A stretch of DNA of 49,579 nt, from the sequence record MF996376. One strand, given 5' to 3'. Below are positions 1,440-3,299 of the stretch, piece by piece. The notes below the pieces were generated by a model, which saw only the letters and a list, made by a program, of their open reading frames with translations, was not told the origin of the DNA and made no database searches. Position 1 is the first letter of the stretch; every line of letters begins with the position of its first letter. This DNA comes from Escherichia phage SRT8. A program made the position numbers and the translations under genes.

Positions 1440-1481
1440 CATGGTTTACCAAATAGTGCTATTTACTTGGAGGATTTACAA

Positions 1482-3299
1482 ATGGCTTTATACAGACAAG
1501 GCGAAGCGTCAATGACGGCAGAAGGACAAGTAACGGGCGTCGGTACTCAATGGCGCGAACCGTTATCCCTGATCCGCAAAGGCGCAACTATAGTTTTCCT
1601 TACTACCCCATTGAAGCTGGCGGTAATCAACACGATCGATAGCGATACGGAAATGACCGCCATTACGACGGACGGCGAAGCGGTGGCGCAATCCAAATAT
1701 GTGATCCTGTTGAATGACTCGTTAACCGTTGACGGCATGGCGCAAGACGTAGCCGAAACGCTTCGTTACTACCAGAGCAAAGAAACGGAAATAGAGGAAG
1801 CAATTGAATTCTTCAAAAACTTTGACCTTAAAACATTACAGGATCTTGTTGCTCGCGCGGAAGCCGCCGCTCAATCGACAAGTGCGGATCGTGCTGCCAC
1901 TGAGCAATTGAAGAATGAAACCAATCAGTTCAGGGCTGGGGCGTTAAATGCTCGTAATGAAGCGGAGGACGCTCGCGACGCCGCTGATATTGCAAGATCT
2001 GGCGCTGAGACTGCAAAGTCTGGCGCTGATACAGCAAAGGCTGGCGCTGAAACTGCGCGTGATGAAGCTCGCCAATGGGCGCAACAGGTACAGCCTGAAA
2101 ATCTGCTGCATAAAGATCAAAACCTTAATGATCTTGCAAACAAAGACCTTGCAAGGAATAATTTGGGCATTGGTGAAACTGACATTCCTGTTTTTAGAGG
2201 AATAAGCCTAACAGAAAAAAACTCTGCAAACTCTGGAATTCTTTATTTAATAAACAAAAGTCCAGAAGATGTACAGCTTTCATACTCAAGAATTTACAAC
2301 GAAATTCAAGGTGGATTAGCAAAATCAACAATACAAGTTACTAGGGAAGGTGGCGACACAAACTATTATCAGTTTGATGAAAGCGGTAACGCGCTGAATT
2401 ACAACTCAATAACAATCGGTAGGGGTATTGGTAATGCTCTTGGCAGTAATTCTCTTGTTATTGGCGATACTGACACAGGTTTGAAATGGGGCAGTGATGG
2501 TGTTTTGCAAGTTTATTGCAATGGTATGAATGTTGCAGCTTATGAAGCGCAAAATATGCACCTTAACGGACTTTTAAATATATGGCCTGTTGATAATAAC
2601 GCTAGCGGCATTAGAGTTTCAGGATCTAGATTTGGGGGCAGCAATGCGTTAATCGGTGGTCAAGTAGCCCCTGGAAGTTTTGAAGTATGGCGAGAACGCG
2701 CTTGTGGTATGCTTGTTGAATTACCTGTTGATGATGCGGCAGTAAACGTCTTTAAGGTTGTTCGATGGGGTGGAGATTGGGCTGCTGGTCTTGATGTTGC
2801 CAGATATAGCGCTGGAGGTTGCGAAGCTCATTTTAATGTAAGGGGCGCTGTTTATGGGTTTAACGATTCTGGTTATGCGTCTGCTGTGCAATGGGTTAAC
2901 ACTTCCGATATTCGCCTGAAAGCAAACCTAAAAGAGATTGAAAGCGCTAAAGAAAAAGTGAAATCAATAAAAGGTTACACTTATTTTAAGCGCAACAATC
3001 TTGATGAAGATGAATATTCTTTCTATTCGGAGGAGGCTGGTGTAATAGCTCAAGACGTGCAAACTGTTTTACCGGAAGCGGTTTACAAGATTTCAGATTC
3101 AGAATATTTAGGTGTTAGCTATGGCGGTGTTACTGCTCTTTTGGTTAACGCGATCAATGAAATGATTGATGATTCAGATAAGCAGAATAAAACTATTCAG
3201 GCTCAACAGGAGGAAATTAAAGAGTTGAAAAACGAGATCGCAGAAATGAAAGCCGCAATTGCGGAAATGCAAGCGCTTATTGTCCAAACTGCTAAGTAA
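1482..3299 (+). CDS. Tail fiber protein with C-terminal intramolecular chaperone (peptidase S74-like) domain
   Basis: C-terminal SDIRLKANLKEIE...EEIKELKNEI region typical of auto-cleaving chaperone domains; Ala/Asp-rich repeats DARDAADIARSGAETAKSGADTAKAGAETARDEA; ATG at 1482 has a GGAGGA RBS (track start 1467 is TTG). Confidence 0.8.
   Translation: MALYRQGEASMTAEGQVTGVGTQWREPLSLIRKGATIVFLTTPLKLAVINTIDSDTEMTAITTDGEAVAQSKYVILLNDSLTVDGMAQDVAETLRYYQSKETEIEEAIEFFKNFDLKTLQDLVARAEAAAQSTSADRAATEQLKNETNQFRAGALNARNEAEDARDAADIARSGAETAKSGADTAKAGAETARDEARQWAQQVQPENLLHKDQNLNDLANKDLARNNLGIGETDIPVFRGISLTEKNSANSGILYLINKSPEDVQLSYSRIYNEIQGGLAKSTIQVTREGGDTNYYQFDESGNALNYNSITIGRGIGNALGSNSLVIGDTDTGLKWGSDGVLQVYCNGMNVAAYEAQNMHLNGLLNIWPVDNNASGIRVSGSRFGGSNALIGGQVAPGSFEVWRERACGMLVELPVDDAAVNVFKVVRWGGDWAAGLDVARYSAGGCEAHFNVRGAVYGFNDSGYASAVQWVNTSDIRLKANLKEIESAKEKVKSIKGYTYFKRNNLDEDEYSFYSEEAGVIAQDVQTVLPEAVYKISDSEYLGVSYGGVTALLVNAINEMIDDSDKQNKTIQAQQEEIKELKNEIAEMKAAIAEMQALIVQTAK

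Follow-up and report, generated by a model that had tools for sequence, protein, structure and literature searches.

Tandem 21-nt repeats in a lateral tail fibre gene of Escherichia phage SRT8 and the heptad rod they encode

The repeat and the gene that carries it

Escherichia phage SRT8 (sequence record MF996376) has a genome of 49,579 nucleotides (nt), called the window here and listed in IMG/VR as a complete viral genome (IMGVR_UViG_2974594196_000001). Its tail fibre gene contains three consecutive 21-nt units, which encode the peptides SGAETAK, SGADTAK and AGAETAR. An original prediction, made from the sequence alone, had drawn attention to these units and proposed that their copy number could vary and so alter the length of the fibre. 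The repeats are, very probably, heptads of the coiled-coil spacer of the fibre, and the length of that spacer steps by units across the family of fibres that share its N-terminal anchor; for this particular triple no variation of copy number was seen.

The three units are present exactly as quoted (1998-2060), and the span of 1965-2070 originally assigned to them does contain them but is wider than their 63 nt. All three are in codon register with the frame that opens at the ATG at 1482. Tandem Repeats Finder (TRF) reports a period-21 array at 1982-2056 (3.6 copies, 83% matches, score 101), the top tandem repeat of the window, with the runner-up at a score of 44. Since 40 shuffles that preserve dinucleotides reach a score of 58 at best, the repeat is real and above chance. 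The units are not equally alike: units 1 and 2 agree at 19 of 21 nt, units 1 and 3 at 15 and units 2 and 3 at 14, while a degenerate fourth unit just upstream (1977-1997, encoding DAADIAR) agrees with each of the three at 13.

The open reading frame (ORF) reported for the repeat by an ORF-finding tool runs from 1467 to 3299, with a TTG start codon. The true start is taken to be the ATG at 1482 rather than the TTG at 1467, because a GGAGG motif is found 10 nt 5' of the ATG and the N-terminus of every homologue reads MA[LI]YR. The 605-residue product matches PHROG tail-fibre families (best E 6e-189). Over its first 110-230 amino acids (aa) the protein shows homology to fibres annotated as lateral tail fibres in T1, Tls and the BASEL Drexlerviridae; a tblastn search with the N-terminal region yields 865 phage records, including the Tls stf gene and the BASEL lateral tail fibre proteins. 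A word-indexed protein search with aa 1-230 gave 24 matches, the Tunavirus T1 "tail fibers protein" among them, and these, being mainly fragments, were left out of the counts below. The gene lies in the order primase, fibre gene, ssb/recombinase, as in phages IME-JL8, UTK0006 and BrunoManser, whose annotations place a lateral tail fibre at this position. In its first 25 kb the window shares 98.7% identity with Citrobacter phage IME-JL8 and 95.6% with Escherichia phage BrunoManser. These two are T1-like siphoviruses classed in the genus Sertoctavirus (Drexlerviridae, Tunavirinae), and the phage of the window is taken to be Sertoctavirus-like. From its shared anchor and gene position together, the product is identified as a Drexlerviridae lateral tail fibre, and the assignment to a tail fibre gene made at the outset stands.

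Table 1. Features of the fibre gene and its product; positions are those of the window
Feature	Position	Strand	Description	Basis
Lateral tail fibre gene	1482..3299	+	605 aa plus stop	GGAGG, homologue N-termini, PHROG matches
N-terminal virion-attachment domain	1482..1826	+	aa 1-115 (β-rich 1-76, helix 83-113)	Conservation, PDB sequence matches, predicted secondary structure (AF2)
α-helical rod	1827..2087	+	aa 116-202, 87 residues, ~13 nm	AF2, DpK2 homology
Seven-heptad block	1935..2081	+	aa 152-200: AGALNAR NEAEDAR DAADIAR SGAETAK SGADTAK AGAETAR DEARQWA	Codon-register layout
Repeat unit 1	1998..2018	+	tctggcgctgagactgcaaag, SGAETAK, aa 173-179	Exact match to the quoted unit
Repeat unit 2	2019..2039	+	tctggcgctgatacagcaaag, SGADTAK, aa 180-186	19/21 nt identical to unit 1
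Repeat unit 3	2040..2060	+	gctggcgctgaaactgcgcgt, AGAETAR, aa 187-193; apparent mosaic junction site	Family-wide conserved last heptad
Conserved joint	2061..2174	+	DEARQWAQQVQPENLLHKDQNLNDLANKDLARNNLGIG, aa 194-231, rod to distal module	Near-identical in many otherwise different fibres
Distal (putative receptor-binding) module	2160..2903	+	aa ~227-474	Identity to UTK0006 and S124 orf22
Peptidase_S74 intramolecular chaperone / predicted autocleavage domain	2904..3296	+	aa 475-605	Pfam PF13884, PDB 6F45 match

Among 97 IMG/VR loci and 476 cluster representatives the anchor (aa 1-115) keeps 60-100% identity, and residues 1-173 find the Klebsiella phage depolymerases 7VYV, 7VZ3 and 7LZJ by sequence in the PDB (E about 1e-48). 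Against the fibre of BrunoManser, 27-30 of 30 nt per bin are identical across the first 300 nt of the gene. Neither the N-terminal anchor nor the rod matches a Pfam family, and a search of NCBIfam matched no family. Foldseek comparison of the monomer and three-copy models with the PDB gave nothing significant; the N-terminal β-domain weakly resembles the crown barrels of ATP synthase at a non-significant E of about 0.03.

The alanine-cored rod and its length across the family

Units 1-3 are heptads 4-6 of the seven-heptad block, which follows the pattern xxAxxA[K/R] with alanine at positions a and d through aa 154-196 and lysine or arginine at e. The 60 residues preceding the PENLL motif can be aligned without gaps in 56 distinct homologues, where aa 161, 164, 168, 171, 175, 178, 182, 185, 189, 192 and 196 are alanine in 59-100% of the sequences and have the lowest entropy; for alanine fraction and entropy alike, the maximum falls at a period of 3.5 residues. 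This period of conserved alanine at a and d is the basis for recognizing a canonical alanine-core coiled coil. The repeats are three turns of an alanine-cored coiled-coil rod and not a free-standing variable-number tandem repeat (VNTR).

Structure prediction agrees as to the helix. The AlphaFold 2 (AF2) monomer of aa 1-230 (model mb311f8bc8e2b) has a mean predicted local distance difference test (pLDDT) score of 79 and shows the rod as one unbroken helix, with pLDDT 88-96 across aa 130-200; no proline interrupts it until P205. By standard helix geometry (0.148 nm per residue) each heptad would contribute about 1 nm, and the full helix would measure about 13 nm. A parallel coiled coil of three strands is the most likely form of the rod. 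Support for a trimeric rod is indirect and comes from the homologous part of the Klebsiella tailspike DpK2, described as an "extended triple helical bundle" in low-resolution cryo-electron microscopy (PMC8552709), from the AF2 trimer of the CRES fibres, from the coiled coil of LtfA and from the trimer-dependent S74 domain.

Length variation in the family was followed in 230 distinct anchor-bearing proteins, the rod being taken to begin where the anchor ends and to stop at the first proline. Rod length ranges from about 60 to 321 residues, with a few truncated outliers below. The best self-similarity lag is 7, 14, 21 or 28 in 171 of the 230 rods and 11 in 19 of them, and at the DNA level 41 of 77 distinct genes have TRF arrays within the rod, 31 of them with periods of 21, 42, 63 or 126 nt and eight with a period of 33 nt. 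Indels were counted in 485 pairs of rods at least 85% identical, using internal gaps only and excluding gaps of 3, 10, 31 and 45 aa as artefacts of the first-proline definition of the rod end. The internal gaps are multiples of 7 aa in 148 of 209 cases (71%), multiples of 11 in 31 (15%) and of other lengths in 30, figures that are not counts of events because the pairs are phylogenetically non-independent. Individual comparisons give the same picture: the rod of Tls is shorter than those of its close relatives by exactly 28 residues (four heptads); between Klebsiella-type rods the difference is 7, 14, 56 or 98 residues made up of AKTSETN/AKASETA units; and among Tempevirinae some rods have one or two ETQQIKDSAVx hendecads more than others. 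Judged from these alignments, rod length in the anchor family shifts nearly always in whole 7- or 11-residue steps. The original suggestion that repeat number alters fibre length holds, to that extent, for the family, and the comparison among relatives that had been proposed to check it does yield unit-sized differences there. A literature search found no paper on unit-sized rod indels in this family or on a recombination seam, and a search for the heptad peptides found no relevant match.

Some loci with this anchor show further forms of rod variation. Four Klebsiella-type tailspikes (L033, L034, L041 and L044), otherwise similar, carry from one or two to about seventeen copies of the AKTSETN/AKASETA heptads, with higher-order DNA periods of 42, 84 and 126 nt. 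Two loci of the T1 clade, L088 and L096, have rod deletions of 93 and 86 aa between repeated "ARD" motifs, lengths that are multiples of neither 7 nor 11; L096 also has a 30-nt tandem duplication, so that MNKLEQIVAD occurs twice.

The triple in the window behaves differently from the family at large. The last six heptads before W199 have the same count and position in 11 of 12 relatives, the exception being Tls, and rods of equal length occur without the triple. The only phage found to share the allele is IME-JL8, which is 91% identical here at the nucleotide level and likewise has three units. Since the relatives have an equal heptad count and IME-JL8 also has three units, the triple is not an expansion, and the heptad number in this phage is, by the same comparison, ancestral. 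Scans with exact and degenerate patterns gave no match in metagenome contigs (two scans) or genome contigs (one scan). In viral contigs they returned the window itself and one unrelated 116-kb contig (58.5% GC), with no allele of other length. The unrelated contig (L102, IMGVR_UViG_2802428818_000001) encodes on the minus strand, at ~300-1300 of the locus, a very long alanine-core heptad rod that carries AKTGAETAKSGADTAKAGADDAK, a peptide almost the same as the triple of the window, followed by a common fibre motif, ...SPALAGTPTAPTA...GTNTDQVATTAYV.

These observations bear directly on whether the array is a fast-mutating VNTR or contingency locus, at which polymerase slippage would alter the count of 21-nt units in phage populations and quickly yield fibres of different lengths. 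An in-frame unit length, the near identity of units 1 and 2 and the unit-sized indels in the family are what such a locus would produce. The array of the window, by comparison, does not look hypermutable: its copies are few and imperfect, and the sole sharer of the allele, albeit a very small sample, has the same number. With distant relatives also equal in heptad count and no other-length allele in the scans, a fast slippage locus is very unlikely, and the copy-number claim of the original prediction does not extend to the triple on which it was based.

Several observations weigh against the interpretation of the repeats as heptads of a spacer that steps in length by units. Glycine occupies position g in all three units (G174, G181 and G188), which is unusual for a stable helix, and a linker-joined three-copy AF2 model reaches a mean pLDDT of only 55, with fold matches that are not significant. 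If gaps are counted by distinct inserted peptides (n = 79), as the non-independence of the pairs recommends, 38 are multiples of 7, 19 multiples of 11 and 22 of other lengths. No copy-number difference has been found for the allele itself, though it has just one other carrier. Finally, the case from codon identity for a recent event at the DNA level is weak: units 1 and 2 use identical codons at five of six same-residue positions, for which P is about 0.011 from codon usage alone, uncorrected for some six adjacent pairs.

The last point touches another account of the repeat, that there was no recent DNA event at all and that the similarity of the units follows from the heptad amino acid pattern and codon bias in an ancient coiled coil. 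Relatives do have heptads here, with GCN codons at a and d and often the series GGC GCT GAR ACT GCR, and the codon-identity probability is not compelling after multiple testing. Yet unit 1 resembles unit 2 (19/21) more closely than it resembles any positional homologue in nine other-lineage relatives (8-16/21; for unit 2 the range is 10-16/21), and the TRF score is the maximum of the genome, far above the shuffles. An account with no recent event is for these reasons regarded as rather improbable, though clearly less so than fast slippage. That units 1 and 2 are closer to each other than to their positional homologues suggests in-register conversion, or duplication together with deletion.

A role for the repeat outside the fibre, as part of an overlapping gene or as a structured RNA or DNA element, is extremely improbable. 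Its one point of appeal is an 85-aa ORF in the +1 frame (1948-2205) that spans the repeat and has a heptad pattern too, but this frame contains stops in all eight relatives examined, including IME-JL8, and was rejected as a gene. A scan of the whole window against Rfam gave zero matches, and the predicted RNA fold of 1965-2070 is no stabler than shuffles (z = -0.86). Across the repeat the frame reads as the leucine heptads LALRLQS LALIQQR LALKLRV; it is likely a side effect of the repeat.

The mosaic junction and the modules beyond it

Right-anchored bins of 21 nt map a mosaic junction in the rod. The window matches IME-JL8 at 19-21 of 21 nt per bin through 2040-2060, after which the values drop to 15, 14, 18, 11 and 12; against the loci L004, L014 and L019 it matches at 4-16 of 21 upstream and at 18-21 of 21 from 2040 through 2144. 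By blastn, identity of 90-93% to PGN590 and JakobBernoulli (from 1999) and to W011D (from 2025) extends only to 2156. Because the identity profile flips at 2040-2061, the gene reads as an IME-JL8-like anchor and rod joined to a joint and distal module of another lineage, with the apparent crossover at or beside unit 3. The joint sequence downstream of the rod, also written DEARQWAQQVQPENLLHKDQNLNDLANKDLARNNLG, is near-identical among fibres with unrelated tips.

It could be argued that the main significance of the repeat lies here, with the last heptad and DEARQWAQQV-PENLLHKDQNL serving as shared homology for tip swaps. This proposal, which is compatible with the spacer interpretation, draws on the flip of the profile from IME-JL8-like to L004-, L014- and W011D-like sequence, on the starting points of the blastn matches, on the occurrence of the joint with unrelated tips, and on the fact that BrunoManser, a member of the same genus, breaks elsewhere. 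Set against this, there is a single junction in one genome, alignment edges within repeats are imprecise, and the conservation of the joint may reflect structural need. We regard the two sides as evenly balanced.

The distal module differs from those of the IME-JL8 and BrunoManser fibres. At the protein level it is 85% identical to its counterpart in Salmonella phage UTK0006, and aa 194-589 share 71% identity (281/396) with orf22 of Epseptimavirus S124, annotated as an "L-shaped tail fiber". The putative receptor-binding tip is, on these identities, common to two phage families. The S124 protein is the second "L-shaped tail fiber" of these T5-like Epseptimavirus phages (Demerecviridae; L101, 2793-4586), and its similarity to the window, about 79% at the nucleotide level, spans 2160-3160 (aa ~225-560), a stretch that takes in most of the S74 domain. 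In the alignment with UTK0006 (L001, aa ~226-380) the fibre of the window is without some 150 residues between NKDLAR and ARNNLGIGE (window ~2150-2160), a gap that has the look of a deletion with repeated "AR-x-NL" joint motifs at its two ends.

The fibre of BrunoManser (L100, 1482-3266) has an identical anchor to about nt 330, breaks at about aa 110 and continues into an unrelated rod of about 135 aa and its own tip. Such a break fits the BASEL description of Drexlerviridae fibres as conserved solely at the far N-terminus (PMC8594841). As a separate observation, the three Sertoctavirus genomes carry three different fibre bodies.

The original prediction also placed an auto-cleaving chaperone domain at the C-terminus, and both the profile and the catalytic motif expected of one are present. 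Peptidase_S74 (Pfam PF13884) is matched at aa 475-535 with 49.7 bits against a cut-off of 22 (E = 4.4e-13), and the chaperone domain of S16 gp37 (PDB 6F45) is matched with E = 2e-12, TSDIRLKA aligning with SSDRRIKK. In the motif T474-S475-D-I-R-L-K480 the lysine lies five residues downstream of the serine, the same spacing as in phage T5, whose pb1 is cut at Thr1263-Ser1264 with Lys1269 as partner (PMC4690869). In the fibre of the window the cut is predicted at T474|S475 (bases 2903/2904), with K480 as the putative partner residue. Sequencing the mature fibre from its N-terminus, the check proposed with the original prediction, would miss a cut at this end of the protein. The domain ends (3150-3296, aa ~557-605) in a second heptad-rich helix (KQNKTIQAQQEEIKELKNEIAEMKAAIAEMQALIV; helix aa ~557-600) with weak coiled-coil matches in Pfam, and the helix of aa ~557-605 agrees with the trimeric coiled coil reported at the centre of the T5 pb1 chaperone.

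Interpretation and comparison with known systems

Taken together, the observations can be accommodated as follows. The heptads, at about 1 nm each, would belong to a spacer some 13 nm long in a homotrimeric fibre, linking the tail-attachment domain to the receptor-binding module, and that module would fold with the help of the C-terminal S74 chaperone, which would then be cut free. Unequal or illegitimate recombination would add or remove whole units, and helical register would stay intact because the rod is made of near-identical 7-residue units (11-residue units in some relatives). Rod length would in this way drift or adapt stepwise across the family, while in the window units 1 and 2 would have stayed, or been made, unusually alike in DNA, and the conserved unit 3 and the joint would have been the crossover point during exchange of the distal module.

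A bolder extension would make the rod an evolvable length ruler, in which in-register gain and loss of heptads and hendecads would fit the reach of the fibre to how thick the O-antigen or capsule layer of the host is, with the last heptad and the joint doubling as a crossover site for tip swaps. This is offered tentatively and we think it less likely to be right than wrong. If it were true, rod length (about 60-321 aa, roughly 9-47 nm) would be under selection and tied to the host rather than the outcome of neutral drift, and the reach of fibres could be compared with the depth of the host surface layer as a testable link. For the SRT8 genome itself the repeats have little import, as normal building blocks of the coiled-coil spacer in a known class of fibre. 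With a conserved anchor and rod on one side and an exchangeable receptor-binding tip on the other, the last heptad and joint would act as a natural seam. Anyone engineering T1-like fibres or Klebsiella depolymerase tailspikes may find there a rational splice point, with the heptads as a means of setting length. What is added to existing knowledge, namely the 7- and 11-residue length steps and the recombination seam, is modest.

The design of the fibre has several known counterparts. The Klebsiella tailspikes DpK2 (phage RAD2, 7LZJ) and Depo32 (7VYV/7VZ3) resemble it in having the anchor followed by a heptad rod rich in alanine and serine; they differ in that their heptads are of the AKTSETN/AKASETA type, the tip is a β-helix depolymerase and there is no S74 domain, and their helical region has never been atomically modelled. 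The gp28 fibres of the Cronobacter Drexlerviridae CRES7 and CRES9 belong to the same family and gene class. An AF2 trimer of gp28 shows a coiled coil, C-terminal β-structure and an autocleavage chaperone, and O-antigen is the receptor (PMC12090712); the distal module is different, and variation in repeat number was not analysed in that work.

Among T5-like phages, LtfA of DT57C has a short N-terminal anchor and a long α-helix that forms a three-helix coiled coil extending from the tail tip (PMC10713586). These lateral fibres, including T5 pb1, share with the fibre of the window the arrangement of anchor and proximal helix, and pb1 ends in an S74 domain as well (PMC4690869). They differ in that no sequence similarity was detected between the N-terminal anchors, and attachment through an LtfC ring is a feature of the T5-like fibres. 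The S74 domain of the window matches the profile of the class that includes K1F endosialidase, T5 pb1, S16 gp37 and MyRF, and its T-S-D-x-R-x-K motif corresponds to Thr1263-Ser1264...Lys1269 of T5.

A further counterpart is the fibritin (gpwac) of T4-type phages, reportedly characterized by Letarov et al. in 2005 as a trimeric segmented coiled coil in which the number and length of segments vary among related phages. Fibritin is an unrelated protein with a function in the whiskers, and it carries a C-terminal foldon in place of the S74 domain that would chaperone the lateral tail fibre of SRT8.

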